64,000 nt of DNA from Candidatus Poseidonia alphae (GCA_002505405.1 DAVD01000046.1:39534-103533), one strand, 5' to 3'; shown: positions 35,826-64,000, counted from the first letter of the stretch. Notes: a model not told the origin generated them from the letters alone. Translations and numbers: made by a program.

Positions 35826-35880
35826 GACTTAGATTTTTAACCATGCGGTTAGGAGTCACACCAAAATTAATCCAAATGAA

Positions 35881-42645: not shown

Positions 42646-42690
42646 CGGTTTAACCTAAAAACAAGGTCAATGGCTAAATGATACCTCATC

Positions 42691-46468: not shown

Positions 46469-49003
46469 TCATCGACCCATAACCGCACGGTGGACCATCA
46501 TCTGCACTTCCTTCATACGAGAGCGTGCACCCAGTTCACGGAACACTGAAAGGGCGCGCTGAAGGTATTCCATGCGTCCTTGTCGGTCCGGTGCCGCACC
46601 GCCGAGGCGGGTGAGAAGTTCTCCGATTTGCATACGTAGGTCATTGGCTTCAGCAATAACGAGAGCTTCACGATAATGCTCCATCGCATCTTCAGTTCGT
46701 CCTGCGTCATGAAGCACTTCCCCAAGAAGAATGGTAATTTCGACCAAGGCTTGAAGGTCACCAGCTTCGTTCATCGCCTCCAAAGCAGCGGTATAATGGA
46801 ACATAGCGAGTTCTGATTGTTCTATCTTTGAATAGTACCGCCCAAGAACCGCTTGCGCACGTGCATGAAGTGCAGCATCACCCATTGATTCTGTTGCTTC
46901 ATGGGCATCCATTGCATGTTCACGTGCACGTTGAACCTCTCCGAGGTCGAGAAGAGCCCGGGCAAGCGTGATTTGACTGCTCAGCAGTTCATTGCCTTTT
47001 GACTGAGCAAGAATCGCTTCAACCTCTCCATATGCCTCTAGGGCCTTATTACGGTCGTTTTTTCTTCGAAGAAGGTAGCCAATGTTGTTGTATGTACGGG
47101 CAGCCCACATTGCATTGCCTTGGCTGATGTAGTGCTTGAGAGCTTGTTTGTGGCGAGCCAGAGCAACATCACTGTTCCCTTGCTTCCGACTTACGTCTGC
47201 AAGTGACGAGAGAATTTCTGCTTCAATTGAAGGATTGTTGGCTTCTTTCGCCCCTTCAAGCGCCTTGTTGAGAACCTCTTCAGCATGCGCTAACCTACCA
47301 AGAAGCGCAAGAATATCACCCTGCAATTGAGCGAGAAGAACAACGGTGCTTGACTCCAGATCTGCCGTATCAATTCGTTCCAACAGGCCAAGCAATTCCA
47401 TGTGTCCTTGGGATACGAGATGCCGTCCTTTGTCCATGATGAGTTCCGAGGCTGATTCAAATTGATTGGACTGAATTGAATGGTAAATAAGTTCAATCGT
47501 AACTTCGTTGGATTGAGGTTGTTTTTCATACCACTCCATGCATTTTGAGTGGAATTCTTCTTTAAGCGATGTAGAAAGGCTACGTAATAAAAACTCACGA
47601 ATCAAATCGTGGACGTCATAGGTGGTTGAATCTGCCTGACGAGCCAGGCCAGATTCCACTAAATTATCAAGTTCGTCGGTGTCCAACTGCTGCAGTGCAA
47701 GCGCCTCGAGGACCATCGGCTCTCGGTAAATGGAAAGGGCAGAAAGCACACGCTTTTGCTCAGCGCTTAATTTGGAGAAAATCTCTACGGTGACATAATG
47801 CTCCAAGGTTTCGTGGAAGGCACCGGCTGATGCCCCACGGTTGATGAGTTCGAGCACCAGAGGGTGGCCTCGGGAGAGCCCATGGATGTGAAGCCACTGC
47901 TCGTCTTCAAGATTTGAAAAACTGCTGAGCAACTTTCGGCCCGACTCAGGGTCGAGTCCGTCCAATGGAAGGACCAAACTAGCAATTCTACCTTCAGCGT
48001 CTTTCGTGGGAACAACTGGCTTGAATGAACGCGAGAAGATAACCAAGCCAATTTTTTCTTCACTTCCGAGTAAAGCGATGGACATGGCTTGGAACGTCTG
48101 ATGCAGTACCAAATCGGAAACTTTGTGGAAATCATCAATGACAATGAGTGAAGGTGAACCTTCAAGCGCTTCTATGAGCAAACGGGCAGCATCAGCCGGT
48201 TGCGGAATTGGCGTTGCTGCAAGGTAACTCGCAAATTCCGAATTGCCCATACTGGACAACCAATCAGCAATGGATTCAAAAAACGAACGAGAACCTTCCC
48301 AATCCTGGCAGCGATGATAGAGAAGGTTGCGACGATGCATAAATCTCTCAATCAATTTTGAGGCCACGGTAGTTTTCCCGATACCTGCAATTCCGGGAAC
48401 CAGAAGAGTTGTTGCCCGTGCTTCAATCAAATTACCCATGTTGTCCAGTTCGGTTGTTCTTCCGTAAAAGTGTCGAAGCCGAGGCAAATCTGCTAGAGAG
48501 GTCACCAACTGCTTTTCCACGTGTTTGGAAAGGTCACGCTCAATCAAATCTTGAGACAAGGAGCGAGCATCAAGACAACCGTTCTCGTCCATGTATCGAA
48601 TCACGTCGACGGGGCGCATTTCGAAGGGCAAAACCGACTTCACACCGCCAAGAGTGGTGTCCACTGGTTGCTCTTCGCCTAAGATACAGCGAAGAGGAAA
48701 TTCTGACAACCGAGTCCAAGTTTCCGAGGCCATGATGATGCCGCTGTCGGTAAGGAAATACGCTTTCCTCTTCCGAGAAACTCCCTTGACGTGAGCCTGC
48801 CGTTCTACCAATATACCTTGATCTTTTAATCCCGAAATTGCACGAGGCACATTTGACCTTGCAATTGCAACGGCGTTGGCAATTCCCATTTGGGACAAAG
48901 CAAAAGGTACCTCAATGCTATTTTTGAAATCCGAATAGTCAAGGAGGTGCAAGAGGATTCTCTCTTGTACACCTGGCTTAGGTTGCGCTGCCATTTGATT
49001 CAA
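46469..49003 (-). CDS. STAND-type P-loop NTPase with an N-terminal winged-helix DNA-binding domain and C-terminal TPR array (AfsR/MalT-like architecture)
   Basis: The wHTH-like N-terminus is ERILLHLL...LSQMGIANAVAIARSNVPRAISGLKDQGILVERQ...KRKAYFLTDSG. An AAA_16/NB-ARC-like lead-in FYGRTTELDNM is followed by Walker A LLVPGIAGIGKTT (about 48368-48394) and Walker B SLIVIDDFHK. The C-terminal roughly 350 aa have TPR-like periodicity (A..YNNIGYLLRR.....AL.AY, RA.A.LG.YY......A...Y..AL). Confidence 0.8.
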   Translation of the reverse strand: MNQMAAQPKPGVQERILLHLLDYSDFKNSIEVPFALSQMGIANAVAIARSNVPRAISGLKDQGILVERQAHVKGVSRKRKAYFLTDSGIIMASETWTRLSEFPLRCILGEEQPVDTTLGGVKSVLPFEMRPVDVIRYMDENGCLDARSLSQDLIERDLSKHVEKQLVTSLADLPRLRHFYGRTTELDNMGNLIEARATTLLVPGIAGIGKTTVASKLIERFMHRRNLLYHRCQDWEGSRSFFESIADWLSSMGNSEFASYLAATPIPQPADAARLLIEALEGSPSLIVIDDFHKVSDLVLHQTFQAMSIALLGSEEKIGLVIFSRSFKPVVPTKDAEGRIASLVLPLDGLDPESGRKLLSSFSNLEDEQWLHIHGLSRGHPLVLELINRGASAGAFHETLEHYVTVEIFSKLSAEQKRVLSALSIYREPMVLEALALQQLDTDELDNLVESGLARQADSTTYDVHDLIREFLLRSLSTSLKEEFHSKCMEWYEKQPQSNEVTIELIYHSIQSNQFESASELIMDKGRHLVSQGHMELLGLLERIDTADLESSTVVLLAQLQGDILALLGRLAHAEEVLNKALEGAKEANNPSIEAEILSSLADVSRKQGNSDVALARHKQALKHYISQGNAMWAARTYNNIGYLLRRKNDRNKALEAYGEVEAILAQSKGNELLSSQITLARALLDLGEVQRAREHAMDAHEATESMGDAALHARAQAVLGRYYSKIEQSELAMFHYTAALEAMNEAGDLQALVEITILLGEVLHDAGRTEDAMEHYREALVIAEANDLRMQIGELLTRLGGAAPDRQGRMEYLQRALSVFRELGARSRMKEVQMMVHRAVMGR

Positions 49004-49016
49004 CTCGATTCAACCG

Positions 49017-52000
49017 TCACTGATCCGGAGTGTAGTCAGGGTCAGGAGCCCACTGGTTTGTTCCTTCGTCCCAGATCCAGCCAGGATGCTGAGATGTCTC
49101 CGCGGGTACAGCCGCAACTTCAGGAGTTGCTACCGCTTGAGCCGTTACTTCTTGCTGGGGAATTTCTACCGTCTTCTTGGCTTTGGCCCATGCATAGGGG
49201 TCTTCTGCAGCAGCGAGGTTTTCATCGTCCTCTTCTGAGACATCTGGAATCTCTTCAAATTCAACGAAGAAGAAGGCTCCAACACCGAGGAGAACAATGA
49301 TACCGCCTACAATCAAGATGATGCTCAAGAGTGAAGAATCATCATCATTACCGCTTGAAACGACAATGCTGAACTCTCCGTTTTCAGTCTCTCCTGCAAA
49401 TTTGAAAACCTGACCGTCCATTTCGAAAATTATTTCTTCATTTCCTTCCATGCTGAGTTGGCTGTTTGTCAAGTCCATGGTCCATGTTCCATCGGAAAGA
49501 ACCCTCGTCGAGTTGAGTTTTGCGTTTCCATTAGCAAACCTGATGTTGACCGTACTACCAGGCAGTCCTTCACCCTGGAAGGATGCTGGATCATCTGGAG
49601 TGATTGGTCCGCTATCAACACGTTCAACGCTGAAAGCAACTGCTCGTACGAGGAAGTTTACCTTGATTGAATAGGCCCTGGATTCTTGGTCATCCTCTGC
49701 ATAAAACATCACTCCATTGAGTGACCATTCAGGTATTTCACTGGTGACCTGTGCAATCGAATCCATCGGATCATAGATCGCTTTTCCATCTGCAGTGATA
49801 CGGATGTACGATGAATAGTCGTCATCTTCAAGTGTTCCGGCATCGTTGTAAACATAGAAGGAAAGTGCATCGCTAGCCTCGCCAATACCATCAGGGTCAC
49901 TGAAAAATTGAGTCAGGTCTATCGTAGCCCCTCCACCGCATCGGTCAAACGAATTTGATTGAGAATCACAGAAGATGGTCACACTTCCAATCCAACCGGC
50001 ATCGTTGAAGACAGGGTCAATGTTGTTGGCGTCAATTGGATTGTTAATGGTCATACGCCAGACCGTATCCACAGAATAGTCCTCACCGTCGTATGCGCGT
50101 ACGGTGACTTCGTATACACCATCATGGTCAAGTTTGGAGGTATCCCAGGTCGCCGACCATGAGCCATCGGGATTGAAGGAGGTCACTGGAAGAGGTCCAT
50201 TGTTGAGAGTGATACTGGTACCGAGGTCTACGATCTCAATTTCCACACGAGTTACCTGTCCGCCGATGTCACGAGCAACACCAACAATTGTTGTATCATC
50301 GGATGCTCGGACTGTATCTCCATCAATACCGCCGGTCATTTGGTCTGCAGAACCAATCCAGGTGAGTTGCAACTGAGGCGGAGTGTTTTCATTGACGATG
50401 GTCAGAACTCGAGTCTCAATGACACAAACTCCACCGTCTTCTGGTGCTACTGCTACATCGATACAAAAGTCGCTATCCGATGCCCAGACCTCAAAGGTGT
50501 ATTCACCGGATGGAAGTTCAGAAAAGTCCCACTCGTGGGACCAGCTTGTTGAGCCTTCTTCGTAATAATGGGAAATGTAATCGTTTTCTGGACTGGTGAT
50601 ATGGAACCAAATCTTCTGAACGTCGCTACCGTATGTCCCTGCGTAGGGGTCTGCTGCTGTTCCTTGGAACAACACTTTTCCATTTGTATGAGTGCTTCCC
50701 GAGTTTGGAACATCAACAACGATGGTAGGAGGTACAAGATTCAGTTTGTATTGACGAACGGAAACAGGGGAATAGTCAAGTCCGTCGTAGGAGCGAACAC
50801 GGAATGTTACGTCTCCCTCTCCACCAGCATGCGCAGACATATCCCAAACAAACGACCAATCCTTGAACGGATGGTTTTCCATTGTGATCATACCGTTAGC
50901 ACCAGAGGTGTCAACTGCTGAATACCAATCATTGGTGCCTGGCGGTTGGACTTCAACAGCGGTGATCATACCAAACTGTTTCGTGCTGGCTGTGTTGTCG
51001 TTTGCATAAGGCCACTTGACGCCGTCCCACGCTTGTCCGGTGAGGTCAACCTTGGTTGCGAACGAAACACCGTCTTGCTGAGTTACGGTAACGCCCGGGC
51101 GTAGATTGTCAAGGTTGATGACGTCATCAATTGGGCCTGAGAGAACATATGAGAAGTCCTTAGTACCGCTTCCGAACTTGAACGCTTCAACCGTGTAGAA
51201 CGGCATTTCACGTCCGTTAATGCAGTCTGCGTCGTCGTCATCAATGAGTGTATCGCCATCGTTATCAATCCCATCCGCACAAGAATCTTCATCCATTGTG
51301 ATGGGCGGGTTGCCTGAGCCAGGGATGATAGCATTCTTGTCACCAACTTTGTGATTCCAATTGCGGTCAAGGAGGAAGTCCGAAGGAAGTGAAACTTGTT
51401 GCGTAAATCCGAATGCGTCGGTCGTCAACTCATACAAGGGCAAACCAGTTGCGTCTTTGATGATGACCGTTGCACCAGCAACGTTGCTGTTCTTAGCCTT
51501 AACTTGGTATCGAACGAGTTCACCTTCACGAACTTGTGAGCCCCATGCCGAGTTTTGGTTTTGGACGTGAATCATCGAAGAGTCAAAGTTCTGGAGGTCT
51601 GCAAAGGAAAACACGGTAGCATTTTCGATCAGTTCAATCGCGAGAGGCATTTGTGCAGGAGGCATGGTGGATGCTTTAGATAGCGACAAACATTCGACTT
51701 GCACGTAGGGGCATTCAGCGCTCATCCAGCTTATGGAAATCGGGTAGAGTTCATTGTTACCTGGGGATGGGATCTGCTCGCTTTGAACGGTGAGTCGAGA
51801 TTCTGTGACGTTGTAAACTTGAGAAACACCGGTCCAAGTATTGCCCGAAAAGTACGCCACTGAGCCGTACTTCATATTGGTTGTTGGGTCGTCATGAACC
51901 GAGATGTTGCCCGCATAGCCAAAGGCTGAGTCGCCAGTGTTTCCTTGGACGTTCACAATGCTACCTGTTGCTCGAATGATGTCACCCGTATTGCCAGAAA

Positions 52001-53462
52001 TCGTGTTGTCAATGATGGTAGCAGAAGCCATGAAGACGTGGATTGCAGGGCAAGCAAATTCTCCACCATAAATGACCGACTCGCACGTGCCGGAGTTGTT
52101 TTGGATGATGTTGTTAGCGAAATAAAGACGCTTTGCTTCGTAGTCCTTGCTTTGACCGTAGTCTTCGTGATGGTATTCCCCGATGTTAACGGCTTCCTTG
52201 GTCGTTTCTTTGATGGTGTTGTTTTCAGCGATAACATCTGAATCTTTTCCATAGATCCACAGTCCATTAAAACCGCCAATTGGTCCAATGGTGTTGCCGT
52301 GAAGTTCAATTTTTGAGGCACTTATTCCAACGCCAGATGCTTCACTTGCACCAGAAATAGTATTTCCTTCAGCGTAGACGTTTGCACCTTCATAGGCGGT
52401 CAGTCCAGCCCCTTCTGTGGTCGTGAGTATGTTGTTGTTAACGGTGAGCATGTGGTTGATGGTTCCCGTTGTTTTTACCGAGGTGGTATCAACTGCATTG
52501 CACTTGACAGTGATGTCCGAATTGGTCAAGGAACCTGAACTTCGCTCCATGAGAACTCCGTAAGATGAGTCTTTAATTTCGAGGTCGTCCATATCGACAT
52601 AGCTTTCCTCCACAACGAGGACCGATAGGCCACCGCCTTGGCTACCGCAATCTGCATCATCACCGGTGAATACTGAACTTTCCAGTTTGAACGTGGAAAG
52701 AATTCCTGCCCCGGCCCCGAAGGCTCCCACGGCTTCATAACCACTCCACATCCGTTCGTCAATGCCGTTCGTAAATTCGGATTCTGAAATCATTGGAGCC
52801 GCGAAATCCACCGCCAAAACGTTGGATGTGTTGGTGTCCTTGAACGACAATCCTCGTGCGGTAGTGCTCGAACCGTCAAAGACCAGAACTCCGTATTTTA
52901 TCGACTGGCTCTGGGTGCCTGCGCCCACAAAGGTAGGATATCCGTACCCGTTCTCAAAGTGTGCATAATTGATGGAGGTCAACGATTGGTCGATGGTATC
53001 ACGGATGATTAAACCAGAACCGCAAGCCGCATCGGGATTGTTGTTCGGCATGGTGGAATGGTTGCTCAGGCAACGTCCAGTTTCGGTGTATCCTTGTGCT
53101 GTTGGCTTGGTCCAAATGAAACGAGCCTGACTGGAGGAAGAGCCCGCACTGGCGCCACAAGCCGAATCCCCGATGCATATGGCTCCACGAACATCAATGA
53201 AATTACCGTACGGAATATTCACAGTAGTACCCGCATTGACAATGAGTTTTGCACCCTCTGCAACTTCAACATCGCCCTGGAGCGTCATGGTGCCTGACCA
53301 AGTCTCAACACCGGTTACGGTTCCTTTGGTTGTTTCATTGACGGCTGAGACTTCAGGCAAGGCAACTAGGCCGAGTAAGAAAGAGAGCAAAAACAGTGTT
53401 ACGATTGAGAAACTTTTGACTTTCAAATTTTGTGACATGAGGGATGCACCTATTCTCCCCAT
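49017..53462 (-). CDS. Giant type I membrane surface protein (1,481 aa) with a right-handed parallel beta-helix (PbH1) region and Ig-like modules
   Basis: Signal: KSFSIVTLFLLSFLLGLVALPEVSA. Beta-helix rungs are visible (NNILTTTEGAGL, AEGNTISGASEASGV, LHGNTIGP, AENNTIKETT, ANNIIQNNSG, IIDNTISGNTGDII, VQGNTGD). A DNDGD motif (DGIDNDGDTLIDDDDADC) is present. The C-terminal TM helix is LLSIILIVGGIIVLLGVGAFFF. The acidic, Pro-rich tail ends HPGWIWDEGTNQWAPDPDYTPDQ. An alternative start (MSQNLKVKSF) lies at 53438. Confidence 0.8.
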   Translation of the reverse strand: MGRIGASLMSQNLKVKSFSIVTLFLLSFLLGLVALPEVSAVNETTKGTVTGVETWSGTMTLQGDVEVAEGAKLIVNAGTTVNIPYGNFIDVRGAICIGDSACGASAGSSSSQARFIWTKPTAQGYTETGRCLSNHSTMPNNNPDAACGSGLIIRDTIDQSLTSINYAHFENGYGYPTFVGAGTQSQSIKYGVLVFDGSSTTARGLSFKDTNTSNVLAVDFAAPMISESEFTNGIDERMWSGYEAVGAFGAGAGILSTFKLESSVFTGDDADCGSQGGGLSVLVVEESYVDMDDLEIKDSSYGVLMERSSGSLTNSDITVKCNAVDTTSVKTTGTINHMLTVNNNILTTTEGAGLTAYEGANVYAEGNTISGASEASGVGISASKIELHGNTIGPIGGFNGLWIYGKDSDVIAENNTIKETTKEAVNIGEYHHEDYGQSKDYEAKRLYFANNIIQNNSGTCESVIYGGEFACPAIHVFMASATIIDNTISGNTGDIIRATGSIVNVQGNTGDSAFGYAGNISVHDDPTTNMKYGSVAYFSGNTWTGVSQVYNVTESRLTVQSEQIPSPGNNELYPISISWMSAECPYVQVECLSLSKASTMPPAQMPLAIELIENATVFSFADLQNFDSSMIHVQNQNSAWGSQVREGELVRYQVKAKNSNVAGATVIIKDATGLPLYELTTDAFGFTQQVSLPSDFLLDRNWNHKVGDKNAIIPGSGNPPITMDEDSCADGIDNDGDTLIDDDDADCINGREMPFYTVEAFKFGSGTKDFSYVLSGPIDDVINLDNLRPGVTVTQQDGVSFATKVDLTGQAWDGVKWPYANDNTASTKQFGMITAVEVQPPGTNDWYSAVDTSGANGMITMENHPFKDWSFVWDMSAHAGGEGDVTFRVRSYDGLDYSPVSVRQYKLNLVPPTIVVDVPNSGSTHTNGKVLFQGTAADPYAGTYGSDVQKIWFHITSPENDYISHYYEEGSTSWSHEWDFSELPSGEYTFEVWASDSDFCIDVAVAPEDGGVCVIETRVLTIVNENTPPQLQLTWIGSADQMTGGIDGDTVRASDDTTIVGVARDIGGQVTRVEIEIVDLGTSITLNNGPLPVTSFNPDGSWSATWDTSKLDHDGVYEVTVRAYDGEDYSVDTVWRMTINNPIDANNIDPVFNDAGWIGSVTIFCDSQSNSFDRCGGGATIDLTQFFSDPDGIGEASDALSFYVYNDAGTLEDDDYSSYIRITADGKAIYDPMDSIAQVTSEIPEWSLNGVMFYAEDDQESRAYSIKVNFLVRAVAFSVERVDSGPITPDDPASFQGEGLPGSTVNIRFANGNAKLNSTRVLSDGTWTMDLTNSQLSMEGNEEIIFEMDGQVFKFAGETENGEFSIVVSSGNDDDSSLLSIILIVGGIIVLLGVGAFFFVEFEEIPDVSEEDDENLAAAEDPYAWAKAKKTVEIPQQEVTAQAVATPEVAAVPAETSQHPGWIWDEGTNQWAPDPDYTPDQ

Positions 53463-53640: not shown

Positions 53641-54870
53641 TTAGCAGGCGGCTCCTGGTTTGATTTCGTCGATCCAGGCTCTAGCATCAACTTGACCGTA
53701 GCCGGCATAAGGATGATGATCTTCCCCCTGCCCAATGGATTGGGCCGAATTCATCAGAGCCGTTTTGACGAGGTCGACACACGAACCATCGCTTTGACCG
53801 TCGGGGCGAAGTTGAGGGTGGGCTTCCAACAACAACGCAAGGGCGCCGGCGACAAAAACAGTTGAGTCAGAGGTACCGCTGCTCGTGTACCAAAGATTAT
53901 CTTCACCGGTGCTGATAATTCGGTGACCTGGAGCTACAATTTCGGGTTTCATGTGGGGGTGTTGGCGTGGGGTCTCGTCCCCAGTATCGCTACCAACAGA
54001 GGAATTCACCCACACTTGGCCCTGTCGAGTCGTAGCGCCAACCGAGATGGCTCTGGGGACGTTCCCCGGTGCAGCCACGTCTCCGTCATCACCGGAACCC
54101 CCGTCATTACCGGCAGCAGCCACGACAAATATTCCGCTATCGGTGGCTTGCCGTGTTGCTGATACTGAATCTCCTTCACGCTGGCCGTCCATATTCGGAG
54201 TACCACCTAGCGACAGGGAGATGATGTCCGCTTCGAATTGAAATTGACACCACCGAATGGCGTCTCCGACATCAGACTCCAATCCGCTGTTTTGTCCCGA
54301 ACCGTCATCTTGGAGTGCTGCAACCATTGCAAACGTCACGTTTTGAGCAATGCCGGCTTGATGGCTACCGGAAATCAATATTCCAGCCATCAAGGTCCCG
54401 TGGGCGACTGCACCGTATTCCCTAGGTGCAGATGAATCCCCAATAAGGTCGTGAAATCGGATATCTTTTCCAGCAAAGGCCTCATGTTGATTGTCAATCC
54501 CAGTATCGACCATGCAAAGGCGGATTCCTTCGCCACTCAGTCCGTCTTCATTGAGGCCTCGGACGCCTGTGGCCTCAAAGGCCCATTCTGAATCCGGTAG
54601 CGGAATGTCAACAACCAGGAGGTCATTTTGCCACAACAGCATGCTAATGGAAACGAACACGGCAAAACCAAGCATGTTCGTCGCAGTCAATGCCCGCCTT
54701 CTTGTTCGAACCACTGGCTGTGCAACCATTGGAGCCCATCCCATGACTTCAGAACGCCAACCGTCTTGATGACCTACAACTGCAGGATCCACAGCAGAAA
54801 CAATGCTCCGGTCATGAGGCTCAGGAAGATACTCAACGTGGTCAAGACCTTCCATAGTGGTGACTATCAC
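53641..54870 (-). CDS. Membrane-anchored subtilisin-like (peptidase S8) serine protease
   Basis: A signal-anchor helix is present (LTATNMLGFAVFVSISMLLW). The catalytic triad motifs are CMVDTGIDNQH (about 54493-54513), AHGTLMAGIL and SGTSDSTVFVAGALALL. Confidence 0.88.
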   Translation of the reverse strand: MIVTTMEGLDHVEYLPEPHDRSIVSAVDPAVVGHQDGWRSEVMGWAPMVAQPVVRTRRRALTATNMLGFAVFVSISMLLWQNDLLVVDIPLPDSEWAFEATGVRGLNEDGLSGEGIRLCMVDTGIDNQHEAFAGKDIRFHDLIGDSSAPREYGAVAHGTLMAGILISGSHQAGIAQNVTFAMVAALQDDGSGQNSGLESDVGDAIRWCQFQFEADIISLSLGGTPNMDGQREGDSVSATRQATDSGIFVVAAAGNDGGSGDDGDVAAPGNVPRAISVGATTRQGQVWVNSSVGSDTGDETPRQHPHMKPEIVAPGHRIISTGEDNLWYTSSGTSDSTVFVAGALALLLEAHPQLRPDGQSDGSCVDLVKTALMNSAQSIGQGEDHHPYAGYGQVDARAWIDEIKPGAAC

Positions 54871-54921: not shown

Positions 54922-57900
54922 TCAGAACTTGGAACCGGAGCGACCGCTACGTGCTGTCTTGACACCACCGTAGATGACGAGGAGTCCCAGAACTACTACA
55001 CCAAGTGTAAGCCAGATCGACTCTGAGCCCGATGAAGGTGCAGGGTCATAACGAAGTTGGAAATCAAAGGCACCGTTTTCAACGACCTTTCCATCATGCA
55101 TGATGGATTCAACATTGTTTGCCTCTTCTCCTGCGACTTCGATTCGTACTTCGAACCGATGGTCACCCTGTGGGTTTGTGATGTTATCAAACACCGCATT
55201 CACAGTCGTGTTAGCAGGGACTGAGATCGTTTGTTGCCGCTCTACAGTTTCTCCGTTAGGCAAGAAGTAAACGATAACAGACGTTGCATCTAGTAAACCG
55301 CTGTTCTTCACTGGAATCACGACATCACCTGCTTCACCTGCGATGTCATCAGATTCAGTTTGGATATCCCCATGGTCCACGGACAATTTGATTTGTGCAT
55401 ACTGGATGGTGACATCAACTTGCTGGGCCTCTTGTCCAAGGTTTTCGATGTAGACCCTGAGGTCAAAGCCATCGTCTTCGCTGAAGTTTGCTGGTGCAAA
55501 GACCGTGAATGGCTGAACCCGTGTCTCGCCCTTAGCAAGTGTGAGCGATGAATCCATTGGGGTTACAGACCAGCCTTCCGGAATTCCGCTTTCGAGGAGT
55601 TCAATGGTGAAGGTGTCTCGTCCGTTACCGTTATTGGTCACGTCAAAGCTAAATTCTCGAGAGACCAATGGGGAAATACCGATGACCTCTGTTGCCCCAG
55701 TAATCTCATACGCATAATCCGTTGGAACGACTGCTTTAACAGTGATCTGACTGGCTTCACCCAATTCGGTTTCAAGTCGCAGTGAGATACGATGTCCGTC
55801 GTCAAGATGCCAGGCATCTTCAACCGATGGTAGCGTAACACGAACGCTGATGTTACCACTGAGAACTGCGTCTGCACCGGTTTCATTTCCAATTCCAAGC
55901 GTCATCAAGGTGGATGCCTCCCATTCTTTGCTCGATTCATTGTAAAGTTCAACGGTCCACAGGTCTGAATCTTGAGCCAAGCCCATTTCAGCTGTAACTG
56001 TGAACACATCAAGGGTTTCAGTTCCGTTGTAAACCGCATCAACCGAGAAGGTGAATTGGTCATAGGCGCTGTTGTTCGTCGTTGACACGACTGCTCCGAT
56101 TTCAACATCGATTGCATTCACAAGAGTCGCTCCTTCAACACTGTTGAATTCGAGGTCCAAGTTTGAGTTCACACGTCGATTGTACTCAAGAGTAGCCGTT
56201 ATGGTTGAATCAGAAGCAACGGTCATGCTTTGGCCACCGAAGTATTCCATTTCCAAGTTGTTCGCATGTTGTGTTGTCATGAAGGTACTGTCAAAGACGA
56301 TGCTACCTTCCGGCATAAGCAGATTGAGCGTACCGCTTGCTGGTAGAGGGACCATCCAGGACATTCCGTCAAACGTAATTTCGAGTTCCGCATCAGATTC
56401 CATGACTTCCGCTTGAGCGTTGTCCGAACCAGCATGCAACGGTGAGGTTGCGCCGAGAGGATACCATTCGCTGTTAAGCACAAGGTTGCCTCCAAGAGCC
56501 ATCTCCATCGAGAGATTACCACCATTGGAAACACTTGCGTCAAGGATACCAACGGTGACACCGCCACCGTTTGGCGAAGGGTTAGCATCGGTGACGACGA
56601 CAATCCATTCACCCGGTTGAACCGAGGTGGACCATTCCAGTGTATCGTTAACAATCGTGCCCAAGACAAGTACTGAATCTCGCTCAACGCCAGATTTAGG
56701 ATGGAGTTCTATGGTTGCACCCAGCAAACGACTGGAGTCAACTTGATCCGTAATCGTACCAGAAACGTCCACCATACCAGCAATAACTTCAATGTCGGTA
56801 GATTGTGTGCTGTTGTAAACTGGGAAGCCTGATTCGTTGTCGTTCATGTAGTAGACTGTATCAAATCCTTCCTTTTCGACCGTAACGTTGTATACATCCT
56901 GAATTGGGACAAAGAGCGTCCAAACACCGTTTTCGTCGGTTGTAACGTTGGAGTTAACATCGGTGTTGTTACCAATTACGGTAACGTTGAATCCACCAAG
57001 GCCTTCTCCAAAGGAGGGGGCGCTGTTGTTGTCAAGGTCCCAATACACCTTACCACCAATCTCAACTTCCAGTTCGGCAAAGATTGGGTCGAGTGTCAAC
57101 GAATCGTTGACTGCGTCGGTCATGTCAAATGGATCTGCTGATGTGTCCAAGTACCAGGTTTGCTGGCCAGAAGACTTGTTTAGGTAGAAACTCCAACTGC
57201 CCGGCATGAGCATTTCGGAGGTGTTTCCATCAATGTCAGTTTTCTCAAGGGTCACGTTACCCAACCCATCTTCGCTCACTGCTACGAGGTTCATGTCAGC
57301 GAGGTTGTTCAGTGTCAACAGCTCCTTAAGTTGGACCAGAACGTTCACTGCTGGAACGGTCGTGTAGGTCTTGTTGAGTCGAGTGGATGCGTCATCGCCT
57401 ACACTTAGCGTAGCACGCAGGGTCTCGGTGGATTCTCCGTTCATGAACGGTGCGACGATCATCAACCAGTCACCGGATGGGACATAGGCTGAAAAAGTTC
57501 CATTTTCGTCGGAACCGATATCTGAGAACCAACGGTCTTCTTCTTCATTGTAGAGCAAGAATGCATTCATCAAACCTTCATCGGTAGAATTCAAGAGCGT
57601 ACCTGTGACACGATAGGTTTCCTTCAGCGGAACCGGAAGTGCCTCTTCAGGACCGTCAAGACCGATGTAAATCTCATCAAAGATAATTTCACCAATCAGG
57701 TCGTAATCTGTGGCGTTTTCGGAATCTGCTGTTGTTCGGTTGAACGTGAGCGTGTAGGTTCCTGGTGTTAACGAAACATTTGCTACACCGTTGCTGGTGT
57801 AGTTGTCTGCTGTGATGTAGAGATCATCTCTTGTTTCATCAAGAGGTACCAGCCGGAACTCGGGGGAGACCTTTGTTCCGTTCTCGAATGAACCGTCTTC

Positions 57901-60900
57901 TGCAGAGTTGAGGAAGATCTCAAACGAGACATCAACAGCAGCCGGCTGTGCGAAAAGTTCCATGAGTGACATTTCTTCACCCATCTGAGAACCGTTGCGG
58001 CTTCCGTTGATTTCAAGGCCGGTGATGGACTCAATGTTCAGAAGTTCTTCCTCAACACTTAGCGTCCATGTACCGTCTAACAGATTGATATCAAACTCAC
58101 CTACTTCATTAGCGGTGGTTGTCCATTGGAGTCCATCTTGATTCGTTGCTGTAATTTCGGGGGCCACCCAGCGAGGAATTGTGCTGCTCCATCGAGTCTC
58201 GTTATCGTAGAGGAAGATGATTCCGCTCACTTGTGTTGTTGGTTCAAGATACATGATGCCCATATCCAAGTTATCGGCCGTTGCGACATTGATGAGTTGC
58301 CCTCCACCAAGGTTGGTGAAAGAGGAACTTGTCGTCATGTGGTACTCAAATCCGGCAGGCACGCGAACTGAATAGTGTCCAGTTGTGTTGGTAACTGATG
58401 TGAACGAAAGTACTCCGCTTTGGAAGAGAACTGTTACTCCAGAAGCTGCATCACTTGTTTCGACCTTGTCTTCATCAGGCGATTCTAGCCACAAACTGAA
58501 GTCTTCAGCGGAGCCGGGGTAAGCACGCAGGCTCCCGTTGATGTAAACGGATTCAGCGTAGGTGATGTTTCGTTCAATGTCATCGGAACCGGGTTCGAGT
58601 TCAACTTGGTCAAAGAGCACGTAGTCACTGTTCACATCATCTCGAATGTCGTAGGTTCCAAACAACAATTCAGCATAAACACGACCGTTTTCGTCAGAAG
58701 TCACGTTAACCGGGTCGAGAATACCTGCTGTATTGTCAAATGTAATCATGCGGTTTGAGACGTTGAAAAGTGGTTCTTGAGTTGTTGGGTTGACTGGGGA
58801 CACAAGATGAAGTGTTACGTCAATGGTTTCAGGGACACCAAATGCAATCGTGATGTTGGTTGTATCATCACCAACGGTTGCTGTTTCGTTCAAATCATAC
58901 CATTCATCGTTGTCAACATCAATGCGGTAATAGTAATCGCCCTTAGGAATTGGGCCATGACTGAAACTAGCATTTTCATCGGTGTTGATTTCAGTCATGA
59001 AGTCTTCACCGAGATCAACATCAACAAACTCAATGGTTTGGTTTGGTAGAAGTTCTCCCGTCATGTCTTGAAGCACTCCCTCAAAGATTGCTCCAGGCAT
59101 GGTCATCTCCAGGTCATAGGTTGGATTAACTCCAATCACAACTGGGTCAGGCAAGAGAACGGATTTGTTGTTTTCAAGCAGTGCTACCATATTGTATGTA
59201 CCGGGCAAGAGTCCAGTTCTGTAAAACGAACCTGGTTCAACCATCGGGCCTGAGAAGGAACCTGCTCCAATGAACAATCCAGTACCGTTGAACGTACCGA
59301 TTCCTTCGTAAAATCCAGCACCTTCGAAGGTATCACCACTGCCGGAGTCGTAATCACCGTAGGTACGGGTGAGCGTTGTGACTCCATCTGAAGTGAACGT
59401 TCCTGAAGCATTAACTGCGCCTTCAATACGATAGTTCGTAAGTCCGTCTTCAATACCAATCGCACAAACGGTGTAATTATCCGGCATGATAGGCATTGAA
59501 TCGTTGTCAAATTCGCAGTCCGTTGAGTTCACAGATTCAATCCATGTGGCCTTGATTGTACCAGCTCCATCCCATGTACCGTTAGCAAAGAACATGCGGT
59601 TATCACCTAGTTCTCGGGTAAAGGTACCGATGAAGTTCTTAGCAACAGCGATACCGGTGCTTTGGAAGGTCCCATTTTCGGCAAAGGTAGCTTCTCCAGT
59701 TCCTTGGAGAATACGGCTTTCCTCGCTTATGATCGAGCCGCTTGTGGTCGTGACGGTATAATCTTCAGTCATCGACCAAATGTTACGCAGAACAAAGGTT
59801 GTTTCGGATACTGGGTCTCCACTGAATGCTTCGTCTCCCGCCCAAGTAACGGTTCCAGAAACACCGCTGCTCTTGACTGCAACATCAAGAGGTGCATCGG
59901 CAGGAACTTGTCGGTTGGCCATTGCTGCAGTGACGTTCATCACTGAATCGCCAAGCCAGGTCATGTTAGCAACTTGGCCAAGAAGCGCCGTGATAGCGTA
60001 TACGTCACGCTCACCGTTGGTTTCACTGGTGATGTCCAGGTTGTTGTTGTTCACCTGTGCATAAGAACCGTCCCGGATTGAGTCACGTGCAGCCACTGGA
60101 TCGTATTCACCAGCAAAAGCAGAGACACGGATTCGACCGGCTGGAAGCGTATATTCGTAGTTGCCGTTTTCATCTGCATCAACAAATCCAATCGGCACCC
60201 AATAGGTATCGGTGTCCAAATCCTCAGGGCCTTCGCCAGAGAATGCGTCACGCTCAACAAGGAGGCGGATCCCAGGGATTCCTTCGCCCGTATCACTCAT
60301 GGTCACTTGACCTGTTATTTCGCTTCCAGGATAGTATTTGAGAATCTTAACCTTGGTATTGGAATCGGTGATTCCAGATTCGGTTTCATCGTCGTACCAG
60401 TTCGCAATAACATAATGATTCATCATTGCACCGGGGAGCGGTAGAGCCGAAGACAGAACGCTACCAGGTGTTCCTGAAACCATAAAGTGTTGAGACGGTT
60501 GAGGATTTGACGAAGCAGTATCAAGACCTAAGGTTGAGGCGCCGTAACCGACGTAGGTTCGTGCAACCATGGTATCAAAGAAAGCAGGCATGTGGTCAAC
60601 TCGCACATCCTCGATCTGCAACGGGTCAATCACTGCACCAGATTGCTGGTTCAAGAAATCTTTTTGCATGGCGAGGTCGACTTCCTCACGTGTCATTTCG
60701 TCGGAGAAATCTCCACGGATGGTTTCGTAAACTTCATTCATGTAGGTTCCAGTGTCTTGTCCTGAAAGAATAGTAGGTGCTCCGAAAATACCCATTGGTT
60801 GACCGCCGTTGTAGTTGTAGTCTGCGGTGTAGCGACCTGCACGGGGGTAAAGGCGGTTGTCGACTGCAAAGTAACGAATCTCGTGGTCACGAGTGATTGT

Positions 60901-63900
60901 TTCTCCAGGAACTCCATTGTAATCCTGTACCCTGTAGTAACCCTCATCTCCACCAAGGTCGATAAGGTCAGCATACATGTCATGGACGGTTGCATCATCG
61001 TTTGCTGCGAAAGCCGCTGTTAGAAGTTGAGTCACCATTGCGAGACGGGCATTCTGCCGGTGCATAGCGGTTGAAACACTTTCATATTCATCGATTAAAT
61101 CCTCTGTGTACCAGTAATCGCCAAAGATCGTGTGAGTTGAAGCCACAACGGTGTCTTCACCGCTTCGAATACTGTTTTGGAATTCACTTTCCGCCGCACT
61201 CATGTGATTTTCTTTATCCCAATCATCACCGATGCAAACATCCGTGACGGTTGATTCGCATGGAATCTGGACGCCATCACTGTAGAGACGTATCACTGGA
61301 GTGGAGGTGTCAAAGATTCCACCATCATGATGGTAACCTTCAGCCATAACGATGCCACGGTTGGTCTTGATGACACTAAAGGAGCGATCTTGAATGAAGT
61401 CGATCGTAGCCTCACCAGTTTGCATGGTTGTAAATTCCCCGATTTGTTCTTCTGTGAGGTAATCTTCCAACACATTTTGGAATCCAACTGTGAACGGCCC
61501 AGGTTCGGTGGTGGAGGTAGAAGCATATGTTCGGTCTCCTTCCGAAAGTTGCCAGACGAACATTGCCGTCAGGTCATCTTGATTCCGGGCGAGCAACATG
61601 TTACCTGTTGCGGTAATACCGGATTGGAAGTTGTCGGAAACAGAGGGATGTCCACCCGTAGTGAGTGCTTGGAAACCGTAGTCCCACCATGAGACAAAGG
61701 CTGGGCGTTCGGAATAGGTAACGTTTGTATCCTGTCCAGCAAGCCATTCATAGCCCCTGTTCCATCCGTCGTCGTTGAAACTGGAACCAAAGTTGCCGAG
61801 GTACCAGCGGCCATCGTGGCTTGCACTGTCAAGGATGGAGAAACCGAGGCCGTCGAAACGAAGAATATCGGGGACGATATCGTAAATTCGTTCGTCAAGG
61901 TCGCCTTCTGCACTTGAAGAGGAACCTGGGATTGCAGAGTCAAGCCCGTATGTCATTTGCTGACTGAAGAGCATCAACATCACGAGGAAGATGGCGGAGA
62001 ATTGAGGTGTTCGCCAAACTGCCTTGCGAGCCCCTGCAATTCGGTCTGCAGGTGTACGGATTCCAAGCTTCTTCCAAGAGCGGACCAATCCACTCCAGTT
62101 GGCCCACTTCGCGAGTGCTGCGATACCGCAGGCTCCGAGAATGGCCATGATGGGTGTGGCGTTGAACATGAAACGTGCTGCGTTCCAGGCCATGAAGGTC
62201 GCCGCAAAGACCCAAACACCGAAGACAAGGTCAGTTGAGCGTCGGTGGCGGAGTCCTCGCCAAAGGAATGTGCCACCCATAACGAGAGCAAGCAGGAAGG
62301 TAATCGGTCCAAAGGACGCAAAGAGTTGTGCTCGATTCGGTGCGTTTGCTTCTGCAATGGTTCCGAAAACCTTGGTCTTGGCAAAGTACCCACTTCCGGT
62401 GAAGAGAACATCCCATGCGTCTGAAATTTCAAAGGTCTTGAGGACAAACAGCAATGCAAAGAAGATGGCTGCCAGACCTACAAGGGTTCCAAGAACAAGC
62501 AACCAAGGCTTGTCACGGTAACCCGTAGTGACGAATGCAATGGCGAGAGTGAACCCGAAGATGAACAAGAAGGGTTGCAGTCCAGTTGAATTAAACACAA
62601 GTGCAAGATGCGGGTGCCCATAGAACGGTATAGCCATCAGGAAGATGACGGAAAGCATGGTCAGGAACATGACGCTCAATGCGGTTGAGTCCCGGCGGCG
62701 GAACATGTTCAATGCAACTTGCAGTGCGTAGGCAAGGAAGAGAATCGAGGGTCCAACAACGAATCCTTTCCATCCAAGAGATGCAATACCGAAAGCGACA
62801 CCTGCGAGGATAGCGTTTGACACAGCAGCTTGTCGGTGAGTGAAAACGTCTCGGAAGGCACGGATGAAAGACAGCGGATGGGCTGATGTTTCTTTTGTGA
62901 TTCGAGCCGTTCCAGCGTACTTGACTGCTCGTAGCCAATACATGAAACCAATGCTGATGAACAGCATAACGAAGGAGTCGTGGTCTGCGAGAGCCCAAGT
63001 TGAGTGGGTGACGTGAGCCGGCATGAAAGCGATGAGCCATGCTGCGATGACTGCAGCTCCTTTTCCGAAGTGGTCCCTTGCTGTTGCTGCAACGGGCAGA
63101 ATGGTTAGAGCTCCGTAAACTGCAGGAAGTCCAAGCATGCTCCACCAAACAGCATCTTCAGGGTTCTCAAGGAAGGGTCCGAGGAGCATTGCTCCGACAG
63201 CCAACGACCACGTGAAGAGCGGTGGACGAGGATTGATTCCACCAATCGGGTAGAAACGGTCTGCATCGAAAACGAGGTGAGCGTTGTTGGCGAGGATGTA
63301 ATCCACAACTCGCTTCATGTACCAAGGGTCAGAACCTCCGGTCATGTCCCAGTTGCCGGTTCCAAAGGCGTTCATTGAGGGGACAGCATACCATTGGATG
63401 CGAATGGTGAGCCCGATGATGAAGGCAAGGCCAATCATCAATCCAGCGCCGTGTGCGTTCATGAAGAGCCGAGCGTTGGACGGTTCGTGTTCCCCACGGT
63501 TGGCCCAACCTCCGAACTTTTCATGAATTGAAATGTAGTAAATTGCAACGCAGATAAAGAACGTGATACCAAGCCAAAGCAATGCACCCCAAGTGCCTGC
63601 AAGGTTTTCGGTGTACCAAATCTTGTCTTCGTACCATGAGGACACTTGGTATAGAGTCCACATCGATCCGGTGAGCATTGCTCGTGTAAACCATCGTTCA
63701 GCAACCATTCCAGCCACAATTAGAGCGACAATACCGGTAAGGAACGCTGCCCAATAGCCTACATAGCCATGGTAGCCTTCTTCGGTTGTCAGTCGAAACT
63801 GGTCGATAAGTTCAACCGAGTTGAAGTGCCAAAGAGAACCTGCGAAAGCAAGGACCCAAACGGCAAGAGCGGAAATGAGCGGAGCAGAAGATGAATTCCA

Positions 63901-64000
63901 TCCACCTTTTTCACTGACAAAGGAAAACCATCCTTCGCGTCCTGCTGGGTTAGCAATACCTCGTGCAAGCAAACCAACAAGCAACCCAAGAGCTGTGAAC
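54922..64000 (-). CDS. aglB: Giant AglB/STT3-family oligosaccharyltransferase fused to about 1,800 aa of extracellular repeat domains and a C-terminal TM anchor. The 5' end probably lies beyond the window.
   Basis: The N-terminal roughly 1,200 aa form a polytopic membrane domain with an EL1 acidic motif context (LVFDADRFYPIGGINPRPPLF) and a canonical WWDYG motif (FVSWWDYGFQ). From about residue 1,215 (nt below about 60340) there are at least 8 prealbumin/CarboxypepD_reg-like units (GQVTMSDTGEGIPGIRLLVE...DENGNYEYTLPAGRIRVSA, TDENGRVYAELLFGTYDI, TNTTGHYSVRVPAGFEY, ANEVGEFDINLLDGTWTL, SDENGTFSAYVPSGDWLM, TDIDGNTSEMLMPGSWSF, TDENGVWTLFVPIQDVY). CARDB-like units follow (FSFDVTNNGNGRDTF, VIPVKNSGLLDAT), then a terminal TM helix IWLTLGVVVLGLLVIYGGV plus the basic tail KTARSGRSGSKF. 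The track start at 63984 is a TTG, and the frame stays open to nt 64000 (upstream codons read FTALG). Confidence 0.85.
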   Translation of the reverse strand, partial: FTALGLLVGLLARGIANPAGREGWFSFVSEKGGWNSSSAPLISALAVWVLAFAGSLWHFNSVELIDQFRLTTEEGYHGYVGYWAAFLTGIVALIVAGMVAERWFTRAMLTGSMWTLYQVSSWYEDKIWYTENLAGTWGALLWLGITFFICVAIYYISIHEKFGGWANRGEHEPSNARLFMNAHGAGLMIGLAFIIGLTIRIQWYAVPSMNAFGTGNWDMTGGSDPWYMKRVVDYILANNAHLVFDADRFYPIGGINPRPPLFTWSLAVGAMLLGPFLENPEDAVWWSMLGLPAVYGALTILPVAATARDHFGKGAAVIAAWLIAFMPAHVTHSTWALADHDSFVMLFISIGFMYWLRAVKYAGTARITKETSAHPLSFIRAFRDVFTHRQAAVSNAILAGVAFGIASLGWKGFVVGPSILFLAYALQVALNMFRRRDSTALSVMFLTMLSVIFLMAIPFYGHPHLALVFNSTGLQPFLFIFGFTLAIAFVTTGYRDKPWLLVLGTLVGLAAIFFALLFVLKTFEISDAWDVLFTGSGYFAKTKVFGTIAEANAPNRAQLFASFGPITFLLALVMGGTFLWRGLRHRRSTDLVFGVWVFAATFMAWNAARFMFNATPIMAILGACGIAALAKWANWSGLVRSWKKLGIRTPADRIAGARKAVWRTPQFSAIFLVMLMLFSQQMTYGLDSAIPGSSSSAEGDLDERIYDIVPDILRFDGLGFSILDSASHDGRWYLGNFGSSFNDDGWNRGYEWLAGQDTNVTYSERPAFVSWWDYGFQALTTGGHPSVSDNFQSGITATGNMLLARNQDDLTAMFVWQLSEGDRTYASTSTTEPGPFTVGFQNVLEDYLTEEQIGEFTTMQTGEATIDFIQDRSFSVIKTNRGIVMAEGYHHDGGIFDTSTPVIRLYSDGVQIPCESTVTDVCIGDDWDKENHMSAAESEFQNSIRSGEDTVVASTHTIFGDYWYTEDLIDEYESVSTAMHRQNARLAMVTQLLTAAFAANDDATVHDMYADLIDLGGDEGYYRVQDYNGVPGETITRDHEIRYFAVDNRLYPRAGRYTADYNYNGGQPMGIFGAPTILSGQDTGTYMNEVYETIRGDFSDEMTREEVDLAMQKDFLNQQSGAVIDPLQIEDVRVDHMPAFFDTMVARTYVGYGASTLGLDTASSNPQPSQHFMVSGTPGSVLSSALPLPGAMMNHYVIANWYDDETESGITDSNTKVKILKYYPGSEITGQVTMSDTGEGIPGIRLLVERDAFSGEGPEDLDTDTYWVPIGFVDADENGNYEYTLPAGRIRVSAFAGEYDPVAARDSIRDGSYAQVNNNNLDITSETNGERDVYAITALLGQVANMTWLGDSVMNVTAAMANRQVPADAPLDVAVKSSGVSGTVTWAGDEAFSGDPVSETTFVLRNIWSMTEDYTVTTTSGSIISEESRILQGTGEATFAENGTFQSTGIAVAKNFIGTFTRELGDNRMFFANGTWDGAGTIKATWIESVNSTDCEFDNDSMPIMPDNYTVCAIGIEDGLTNYRIEGAVNASGTFTSDGVTTLTRTYGDYDSGSGDTFEGAGFYEGIGTFNGTGLFIGAGSFSGPMVEPGSFYRTGLLPGTYNMVALLENNKSVLLPDPVVIGVNPTYDLEMTMPGAIFEGVLQDMTGELLPNQTIEFVDVDLGEDFMTEINTDENASFSHGPIPKGDYYYRIDVDNDEWYDLNETATVGDDTTNITIAFGVPETIDVTLHLVSPVNPTTQEPLFNVSNRMITFDNTAGILDPVNVTSDENGRVYAELLFGTYDIRDDVNSDYVLFDQVELEPGSDDIERNITYAESVYINGSLRAYPGSAEDFSLWLESPDEDKVETSDAASGVTVLFQSGVLSFTSVTNTTGHYSVRVPAGFEYHMTTSSSFTNLGGGQLINVATADNLDMGIMYLEPTTQVSGIIFLYDNETRWSSTIPRWVAPEITATNQDGLQWTTTANEVGEFDINLLDGTWTLSVEEELLNIESITGLEINGSRNGSQMGEEMSLMELFAQPAAVDVSFEIFLNSAEDGSFENGTKVSPEFRLVPLDETRDDLYITADNYTSNGVANVSLTPGTYTLTFNRTTADSENATDYDLIGEIIFDEIYIGLDGPEEALPVPLKETYRVTGTLLNSTDEGLMNAFLLYNEEEDRWFSDIGSDENGTFSAYVPSGDWLMIVAPFMNGESTETLRATLSVGDDASTRLNKTYTTVPAVNVLVQLKELLTLNNLADMNLVAVSEDGLGNVTLEKTDIDGNTSEMLMPGSWSFYLNKSSGQQTWYLDTSADPFDMTDAVNDSLTLDPIFAELEVEIGGKVYWDLDNNSAPSFGEGLGGFNVTVIGNNTDVNSNVTTDENGVWTLFVPIQDVYNVTVEKEGFDTVYYMNDNESGFPVYNSTQSTDIEVIAGMVDVSGTITDQVDSSRLLGATIELHPKSGVERDSVLVLGTIVNDTLEWSTSVQPGEWIVVVTDANPSPNGGGVTVGILDASVSNGGNLSMEMALGGNLVLNSEWYPLGATSPLHAGSDNAQAEVMESDAELEITFDGMSWMVPLPASGTLNLLMPEGSIVFDSTFMTTQHANNLEMEYFGGQSMTVASDSTITATLEYNRRVNSNLDLEFNSVEGATLVNAIDVEIGAVVSTTNNSAYDQFTFSVDAVYNGTETLDVFTVTAEMGLAQDSDLWTVELYNESSKEWEASTLMTLGIGNETGADAVLSGNISVRVTLPSVEDAWHLDDGHRISLRLETELGEASQITVKAVVPTDYAYEITGATEVIGISPLVSREFSFDVTNNGNGRDTFTIELLESGIPEGWSVTPMDSSLTLAKGETRVQPFTVFAPANFSEDDGFDLRVYIENLGQEAQQVDVTIQYAQIKLSVDHGDIQTESDDIAGEAGDVVIPVKNSGLLDATSVIVYFLPNGETVERQQTISVPANTTVNAVFDNITNPQGDHRFEVRIEVAGEEANNVESIMHDGKVVENGAFDFQLRYDPAPSSGSESIWLTLGVVVLGLLVIYGGVKTARSGRSGSKF
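61675..61689 (-). other. WWDYG catalytic motif of the STT3/AglB oligosaccharyltransferase
   Basis: Plus-strand accgtagtcccacca reverse-complements to TGG TGG GAC TAC GGT, in frame with the 54922..64000 ORF (residues 766-770 counted from the TTG at 63984). Confidence 0.9.

Follow-up and report, generated by a model that had tools for sequence, protein, structure and literature searches.

The 64,000-nt stretch of Candidatus Poseidonia alphae analysed here (GCA_002505405.1 DAVD01000046.1:39534-103533; hereafter the window) carries on its minus strand the gene for a giant AglB, in which an STT3-type oligosaccharyltransferase (OST) continues, within one polypeptide, into an extracellular array of great length and then into a further membrane anchor at the C-terminus. 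Genes for an S8 subtilase and a large secreted protein follow downstream (Table 1). Poseidoniales (Marine Group II, MGII) are the most abundant planktonic archaea of surface oceans; to our knowledge, no member has been cultured, and we know of no account of their cell envelope. Characterised AglBs, such as that of Haloferax volcanii, measure about 600-1,050 aa. An earlier note on this DNA had proposed that a single open reading frame (ORF) fuses all three parts, and both the profile matches and the conservation of the frame described below bear this out.

Translation of the minus strand gave 3,025 sense codons before a stop at 54922-54924 (54922-63999 translated) with the frame still open at the window end, in agreement with the uninterrupted ORF of more than 9 kb that had been noticed. 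Searching protein sequences, we found a full-length counterpart of 3,206 aa (P0001) that is nearly identical. By comparison with it, just the first 180 residues of the gene are missing from the window, whose frame from 54925 to the end represents the 3' 94%, and the true start, which the earlier note had left to be found, lies 180 residues beyond the window. Residues are numbered hereafter as in P0001 (window residue = P0001 minus 180). Among the best 120 matches of this search, 117 were protein clusters 3,125-3,227 aa long and 48-87% identical, with 100% query coverage.

We further scanned DNA from one genome per GTDB species and found 584 stretches encoding a relative; locus counts given below refer to the best 80 of these 584. 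All 80 contained Poseidoniales-type sequence, the closest belonging to a Poseidonia sp. (93% identical). Three of them (L038, L054 and L059) sit in metagenome-assembled genomes (MAGs) titled as bacteria, which is probably the result of mis-binning. The frame ran unbroken to a stop codon or contig end in 78 of the 80 loci, so that the fusion is conserved rather than split, and no stop codon or gene boundary setting the OST module apart from the array was found in this set. Of the two broken loci, L002 shows indels all along its contig, and L038 has a single in-frame stop (L038:6148-6150) at about aa 1053, within the AglB core insertion described below. Both interruptions are probably sequencing errors, though the L038 stop may instead mark a natural split at the core insertion. 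An alignment of 39 orthologues was collinear and nearly gap-free, with almost constant length. The unbroken frames, the collinear alignment and the independent assemblies together exclude misassembly, a hidden frameshift and a split gene. The gene is thus real and conserved as a single ORF, and its fusion design is the standard form in Poseidoniales, conserved across hundreds of species and not peculiar to one contig.

The STT3 transmembrane domain matched the Pfam STT3 profile (PF02516; 44.8 bits against a cut-off of 24.5, E = 1.6e-11) and the NCBIfam profile archaeo_STT3 (TIGR04154; E = 1.8e-49; window residues 188-677 against profile positions 3-475 of 831). A phmmer comparison with Archaeoglobus fulgidus AglB-L (3WAJ/3WAK, 875 aa) aligned about 410 residues of this domain with 3WAJ (E = 4e-10) and paired two of the catalytic motifs. 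The acidic residue of external loop 1 lies in GGSDPWY, opposite GGNDPWY of 3WAJ (D47 of A. fulgidus AglB-L), in a region (TGGSDPWYMKRVVDY) that is invariant in the 39 orthologues. The second metal-binding motif, LADHD (D519 and D521), pairs with NDHH of 3WAJ (D161/H163) and is likewise invariant in these orthologues. The TIXE/SVSE motif of external loop 5 corresponds to TIAE at aa 727-730, where T727 and E730 are invariant inside F.T..EAN. In the soluble core, SWWDYGFQA...HPSVSDNFQ is invariant in the 39 orthologues, and translation placed the perfect WWDYG at exactly the nucleotides previously reported for it (61675-61689). The FDADRFYPIGG loop that had also been noticed was recovered at aa 424-434. 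The likeness to A. fulgidus AglB-L thus extends over the external loop 1 Asp and the DxD/DxH, TIxE and WWDYG motifs, whereas the giant AglB is 3.7 times longer, has low identity outside the motifs and offers no recognisable DK/MI motif. Judged from these alignments, both the STT3 transmembrane domain and the AglB core are complete, and the catalytic signature appears intact.

The periplasmic part of the enzyme module is built around an interrupted AglB core. Its WWDYG-containing stretch matched the C-terminal domains of the AglB-S proteins 3VU0/3VGP (profile match, E = 1e-6), after which a segment of about 220 residues (aa 996-1215) breaks the core. Conservation in this insertion drops to 0.54-0.63, the lowest in the enzyme module, with two invariant Cys in the 39 orthologues; it is largely missing from the shorter Thermoplasmatota relatives, and few relatives align there. 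With the insertion in place, the Pfam AglB_core-like match reached 20.2 bits over profile positions 29-84 of 111, and deleting the insertion in silico brought it to 27.2 bits (cut-off 27) over positions 29-110 of 111. We also modelled aa 866-1900 with AlphaFold2 (AF2; multiple sequence alignment of 13 sequences). The insertion, of mixed alpha/beta structure, was the best-predicted part of this model (10-residue-block mean predicted local distance difference test, pLDDT, about 60-85), the mean pLDDT of which was 43, and a Foldseek search with the model gave no match at E <= 0.001. The core resumes at the start of aa 1216-1480, a domain whose column conservation (0.80-0.85) equals that of the transmembrane domain and which is the only part past WWDYG that can be aligned with most of the 85 distant giant AglBs of the second tier described below.

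Ahead of the STT3 match, hydropathy analysis of P0001 revealed 8-9 hydrophobic helices in aa 1-360. This region is moderately conserved, with invariant residues including E122, R193-G194, G203-W-F205 and E281-x-W283, and it gave no Pfam match and no sequence or profile match in the PDB. We ruled out that it duplicates the STT3 transmembrane domain (hhalign probability 0.14%) and dropped an archaeosortase-like identity, there being no invariant Cys in the domain. The earlier description of the first 1,200 or so residues as one STT3 membrane domain therefore does not hold: they comprise this N-terminal membrane domain, then some 505 aa of STT3 transmembrane domain, and finally the soluble AglB core interrupted by its insertion. 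Compared with characterised AglBs, the giant protein adds the N-terminal membrane domain of about 360 aa, the core insertion of about 220 aa, an array of about 1,700 aa and the second, C-terminal anchor.

A variable Asn-rich linker (about aa 1490-1510) lies between the conserved periplasmic domain and the array, which is acidic (isoelectric point 4.05) and gave Pfam matches to CarboxypepD_reg, CARDB, NPCBM_assoc and NOMO1-like families. Where the earlier note had counted at least eight CarboxypepD_reg modules, the family assignment stood (PF13620 or related; 62.4 bits overall against a cut-off of 32.3), but only about 2-3 stretches are detectable by sequence. For the CARDB-like modules it had named, the profile match lay right at threshold (PF07705; 22.7-23.9 bits against a cut-off of 22.7). 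That modules beyond the CarboxypepD_reg matches are beta-sandwiches follows from the AF2 model of aa 2007-3206 (pLDDT 75), an all-beta structure with 82 strands and a terminal helix that contains about 10-11 beta-sandwich-sized units in aa 2007-3170. Foldseek with this model returned only generic tandem beta-sandwich proteins, namely alpha-2-macroglobulins on top, integrin legs and hydin, at TM-scores of 0.08-0.14. The tandem beta-sandwiches recall bacterial alpha-2-macroglobulin-type rods, and the giant AglB shares with NOMO (BOS complex) strings of prealbumin/MG-like domains, a C-terminal membrane helix and weak NOMO1-like Pfam matches; however, these structural matches are generic, the profiles fall below gathering cut-offs, and the giant protein has no thioester or bait region. 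Two invariant Gly-rich stretches at aa ~1612-1765 (nt ~58710-59170, minus strand), QGTGEATF..NGTF...NGTWDGAGT and FEGAGFYEGIGTFNGTGLFIGAGSFSG, lie in the most conserved part of the array and hold conserved sequons. Divergence among its domains, and the collinearity and near-constant length of the protein among orthologues, show that this is not a recent repeat array.

We then compared N-X-S/T sequons in the array with composition-matched shuffles and found 51 observed against 20.6 +/- 4.3 expected (z = 7, about 2.5-fold), which agrees with the sequon-rich ectodomain proposed earlier; the reversed motif occurs 18 times. Across the 39 orthologues the array holds a mean of 44.7 sequons against about 19, and 18 of its positions are sequons in 80% or more of them. 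N1525, N1535, N1653, N1688, N1751 and N2428 belong to the conserved sites. The periplasmic domain of the enzyme, in contrast, is depleted (1.5 against 4.6-6.5 in the 39 orthologues). In the arrays of the 85 distant giant AglBs, median enrichment was 2.35-fold, and 92% exceeded 1.5-fold. Secreted giant neighbours in the same window differ in this respect, one not being enriched (9 against 14.9) and another enriched (28 against 14.4). Enrichment in the array combined with avoidance in the catalytic domain argues that the array is really N-glycosylated.

The ORF ends, as the earlier note had described, in a hydrophobic helix (54961-55017) and a basic tail (54925-54960), and the helix is present in all orthologues. 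In Poseidoniales, YGG stands at the helix's inner end, ARS is conserved too, and the last residues of every sequence are [KR/P]F, an ending that the relatives of 2,000-2,800 aa do not share. This Phe-ending tail may contact a partner or serve as a sorting tag particular to the lineage. Against the NCBIfam C-terminal sorting domains (TIGR04126, NF033507, NF045529), the final 70 aa of the window protein gave no match at E <= 1. We rejected the tail as a sorting signal shared within the window, as none of the other window ORFs (200 aa or longer) has a transmembrane helix and basic tail at its end and no CTERM model matched. Several relatives of 2,000-2,800 aa have C-termini of the xPGF type; these reached the cut-offs of Loki-CTERM (24.6 bits against 19.9) or Heimdall-CTERM (24.2 against 24) and fell just under that of PGF-CTERM (21.6 against 24.5).

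An exhaustive phmmer search with the STT3 module uncovered this second tier of relatives, which are 2,000-2,800 aa long and 28-38% identical over the STT3 module and the aa 1216-1480 domain, and whose STT3 domain begins at about residue 20-130. Their sources, by name, are Thermoplasmata, Thermoplasmatota and Methanomassiliicoccales MAGs. They align with aa 361-1000 and aa 1216-1480 of the window protein, have neither the N-terminal membrane domain nor most of the insertion, and are barely alignable in the array beyond aa 1500, yet nearly all end in a transmembrane helix and basic tail. Members such as P0148, with eight CarboxypepD_reg and four SdrD_B stretches, and P0137 thus resemble the window protein in the STT3 module, the aa 1216-1480 domain, a CarboxypepD_reg/SdrD_B/CARDB array, sequon enrichment and the C-terminal helix with its tail. 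They differ in the missing parts, in the array sequence and in gene neighbourhood, and some bear PGF/Loki/Heimdall-CTERM-type signals in place of the Phe-ending tail. What is conserved over this long distance is the plan, that is, an OST, a long glycosylatable beta-sandwich array and a second anchor, and not the array sequence. Automatic database names of the members are inconsistent (STT3 domain-containing, GT39, carboxypeptidase regulatory-like domain-containing, hypothetical).

Table 1. Parts of the giant aglB gene and its two downstream neighbours in the window (aa positions as in P0001).
Feature	Position (nt)	Strand	Evidence
C-terminal half (aa 181-360) of the N-terminal polytopic membrane domain, lineage-specific	63460..64000	-	helices before STT3 match in P0001
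STT3/AglB transmembrane catalytic domain (aa 361-865)	61945..63459	-	PF02516, TIGR04154, phmmer against 3WAJ
D404 in GGSDPWY	63328-63330	-	position checked by translation
D519-H-D521	62977-62985	-	position checked by translation
T727-I-A-E730	62350-62361	-	position checked by translation
Periplasmic AglB core, first half (aa 866-995), with WWDYG (61675-61689) and DNFQ	61555..61944	-	AglB_core-like partial match; 3VU0/3VGP profile match
AglB core insertion, ~220 aa (aa 996-1215)	60895..61554	-	conservation drop, in silico deletion
Conserved periplasmic domain (aa 1216-1480), opening with the second half of the AglB core (HEIRYFAVDNRLYPRAGRY...)	60100..60894	-	column conservation
Extracellular array of divergent beta-sandwich domains (aa 1481-3170)	55018..60099	-	Pfam matches, AF2 model of aa 2007-3206, sequon count
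C-terminal transmembrane helix IWLTLGVVVLGLLVIYGGV, 19 residues	54961..55017	-	hydropathy 2.34; AF2 helix aa 3176-3198
Basic cytoplasmic tail KTARSGRSGSKF (54925-54960) and stop codon	54922..54960	-	conserved in orthologues
S8 subtilase with N-terminal signal anchor, co-directional downstream	53641..54870	-	Peptidase_S8 E = 4e-37; transmembrane-like aa 61-87 after RTRRRA
1,481-aa secreted protein: signal peptide, Beta_helix/Big_7, transmembrane-like segment near C-terminus	49017..53462	-	downstream of S8 gene in 64 of 80 loci

The gene order around the giant aglB is also conserved in Poseidoniales. The S8 subtilase gene lies directly downstream in 68 of the 80 loci, and also at L081; the gene for a secreted Beta_helix/Big_7 protein follows that of the subtilase in 64 of 80; and purD lies upstream. 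The subtilase and secreted-protein genes that follow the giant aglB may belong to a surface-protein operon. Directly beyond this three-gene cluster in the window, and likewise at L081, is a gene for an 844-aa protein with an N-terminal helix-turn-helix, an AAA ATPase and TPR repeats (MalT/STAND-like regulator; 46469-49003, minus strand). Next, on the opposite strand, a metallo-beta-lactamase-fold gene is succeeded by three genes with archaeal type IV pilin-like N-termini (41824-46468, plus strand; weak DUF7289, DUF7266 and Pilin_N matches). Further on are two giant ORFs of 1,798 and 1,917 aa with signal-peptide-like N-termini and no recognisable catalytic domain (30429-41634, minus strand), one of which shows a TSP3-repeat match and 2-fold sequon enrichment. 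The neighbourhood of a Thermoplasmata relative is unlike that of Poseidoniales: its giant AglB gene has a 4-nt overlap with the beginning of a gene for a 298-aa CARDB protein (L082/L083:17071-17967), after which come genes for a GvpD-like ATPase and T2SSE/T2SSF (pilus/archaellum).

We take the protein to be the Poseidoniales form of AglB, made as one 3,206-aa membrane protein. On the sequence comparisons above, it is probably an active OST whose own array is glycosylated and, tethered at both ends, forms a glycosylated arch that is part of the envelope and fixes the place of the enzyme. Like other AglBs, it would pass dolichol-phosphate-linked glycans to Asn residues of exported proteins, a major substrate being its own array, modified in cis or by neighbouring copies. 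The array would remain attached as a glycosylated arch or stalk on the cell surface; stretched out, its roughly 15 domains would span a contour of tens of nanometres. As a component of the glycocalyx or envelope, such an arch would also keep the catalytic site in a set position there. Two-ended anchoring appears to be a selected feature, as nearly all relatives end in a helix and basic tail and some of these C-termini reach sorting-domain cut-offs. Two further parts, the N-terminal membrane domain specific to Poseidoniales and the conserved tail with its final Phe, probably serve in packing or in contacts with partners. Archaeal S-layer and other surface glycoproteins with C-terminal anchors, such as the Haloferax volcanii S-layer glycoprotein with its PGF-CTERM, similarly combine an acidic multi-domain beta-sandwich ectodomain, many sequons and a C-terminal anchor, and the sorting-signal-like C-termini of some giants of 2,000-2,800 aa extend the likeness. 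Unlike in these glycoproteins, the surface part of the giant AglB forms one covalent chain with the enzyme by which it would be glycosylated, and Pfam and NCBIfam profile searches found no S-layer family match in the window protein.

Several observations weigh against a glycosylated arch built by an active enzyme. The TIGR04154 match, at 168.9 bits, is far under the curated cut-off of 450, so the protein is related to, and not a member of, the archaeosortase A system-associated OST subfamily. The DK/MI motif, which completes the pocket for the +2 Ser/Thr, was not located, the alignments to solved AglB C-terminal domains ending at the WWDYG stretch; the candidate region HEIRYFAVDNRLYPRAGRY is invariant and fits neither DxxK nor MxxI, and the AF2 model is unreliable here. 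Sequon enrichment is typical of archaeal surface proteins generally and is no proof of self-glycosylation. In the array, aa 1481-2006, with its most conserved Gly-rich part, were modelled at pLDDT below 50. We looked for cultured carriers of a giant AglB, and every source-named member was a MAG. Finally, the conserved subtilase gene adjoining the giant aglB leaves room for post-translational cleavage.

Such cleavage is the basis of an alternative that we consider unlikely, in which the chain is a precursor (polyprotein) cleaved where the AglB module (about aa 1-1480) gives way to the array, with the adjoining S8 subtilase as candidate protease. The products would be a normal-sized OST and a C-terminally anchored, heavily glycosylated S-layer-like surface protein in a 1:1 ratio. 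The conserved order of giant aglB, subtilase with signal anchor and large secreted protein is consistent with processing of this kind, as are the variable Asn-rich linker, which separates the periplasmic domain from the array, and the resemblance of the relatives' C-termini to sorting signals of archaeal surface glycoproteins. However, no cleavage site was identified, and the Thermoplasmata relative examined has no subtilase nearby and keeps the same fusion. If the halves acted separately, gene fission would be expected somewhere; among the best 80 loci, all from Poseidoniales, there is no two-gene split, and the breaks in L002 and L038 are not at the proposed junction.

The array and C-terminal helix might also act as accessory subunits fused in cis, folding back on the catalytic module so that the helix packs against the STT3 or N-terminal domain; by analogy with ribophorin I/Ost1 and OST48/Wbp1, they would then hold substrates, the translocon or the lipid-linked donor rather than build the envelope. 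In the eukaryotic OST, STT3 is accompanied by ribophorin I/Ost1, OST48/Wbp1 and ribophorin II/Swp1, which carry beta-rich extracytoplasmic domains on C-terminal helices. The resemblance is one of architecture only, as the eukaryotic subunits are separate polypeptides and no sequence or fold homology to the giant AglB array was detected. Conservation of the C-terminal helix and tail extends beyond hydrophobicity to the YGG, ARS and terminal [KR/P]F residues, aa 1216-1800 are as conserved as the catalytic domain, array length is fixed, and weak NOMO1-like and EMC7-type beta-sandwich profile matches occur in the window protein and its relatives, all of which would suit an accessory role. Such a role is nevertheless quite improbable: about 1,700 aa far exceeds what it would need, the array past aa 1500 is barely alignable between Poseidoniales and other Thermoplasmatota, and no homology to ribophorins or OST48 emerged, the Foldseek matches of aa 2007-3206 being to generic arrays only.

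The earlier note had also offered the idea of an adhesin that hijacks the OST domain as its anchor; in a pseudo-enzyme version of it, the STT3 module would be catalytically dead and a separate AglB would perform the glycosylation. The sub-threshold TIGR04154 match and the missing DK/MI motif would fit this version, but every catalytic motif found is invariant in the 39 orthologues, the catalytic and WWDYG residues are unchanged across 48-100% identity, no part of the protein is better conserved than its transmembrane and core domains, and about 22 membrane helices are more than a mere anchor needs. We therefore disfavour this role as very unlikely; the other two roles offered in the earlier note, a scaffold and a self-glycosylating envelope component, may each apply. 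As for a chimeric assembly, or an overlooked stop or frameshift that had merged an OST gene with one for a surface protein, the interruptions in two of 80 loci lend it practically no credence, because the independent assemblies come from many studies and give the same collinear protein, L002 is indel-ridden throughout and the L038 stop falls inside the enzyme module, away from the junction.

A gene annotated aglB in a Poseidoniaceae MAG was among those enriched in metatranscriptomes when the genus was active, its size being left uncommented (PMC9723583). Neither glycosylation nor an S-layer comes up in the main comparative-genomics paper on MGII, and full-text literature searching found no description of the giant architecture, in line with what the earlier note had supposed. 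Known, then, is the AglB/STT3 kind, with members already in databases under automatic names, and new is the giant, doubly anchored architecture; given how inconsistently the members are named, the finding is also relevant to annotation.

Building on the reading of an active OST with a glycosylated, doubly tethered array, one may go further and regard the giant AglB as a unit that builds the envelope by itself, in which the only N-oligosaccharyltransferase of the cell would be joined covalently to its main substrate. We regard this extension as rather doubtful. If true, the main surface glycoprotein of Poseidoniales and many other Thermoplasmatota would be the doubly anchored ectodomain of their OST, enzyme and coat would be held in a fixed 1:1 stoichiometry, and the N-terminal membrane domain and C-terminal helix would replace accessory subunits that are separate in eukaryotes.

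Taken together, Poseidoniales AglB is roughly three times as large as any OST characterised so far, and its plan recurs across Thermoplasmatota, so that the textbook view of AglB as a stand-alone enzyme of 600-1,000 aa misses a large natural class. The giant AglB bears on what coats the cells of Poseidoniales, on the physical coupling of an OST to its substrate or to built-in accessory domains, and on how single-subunit OSTs might gain the beta-sandwich, single-helix partners of eukaryotic OST complexes.

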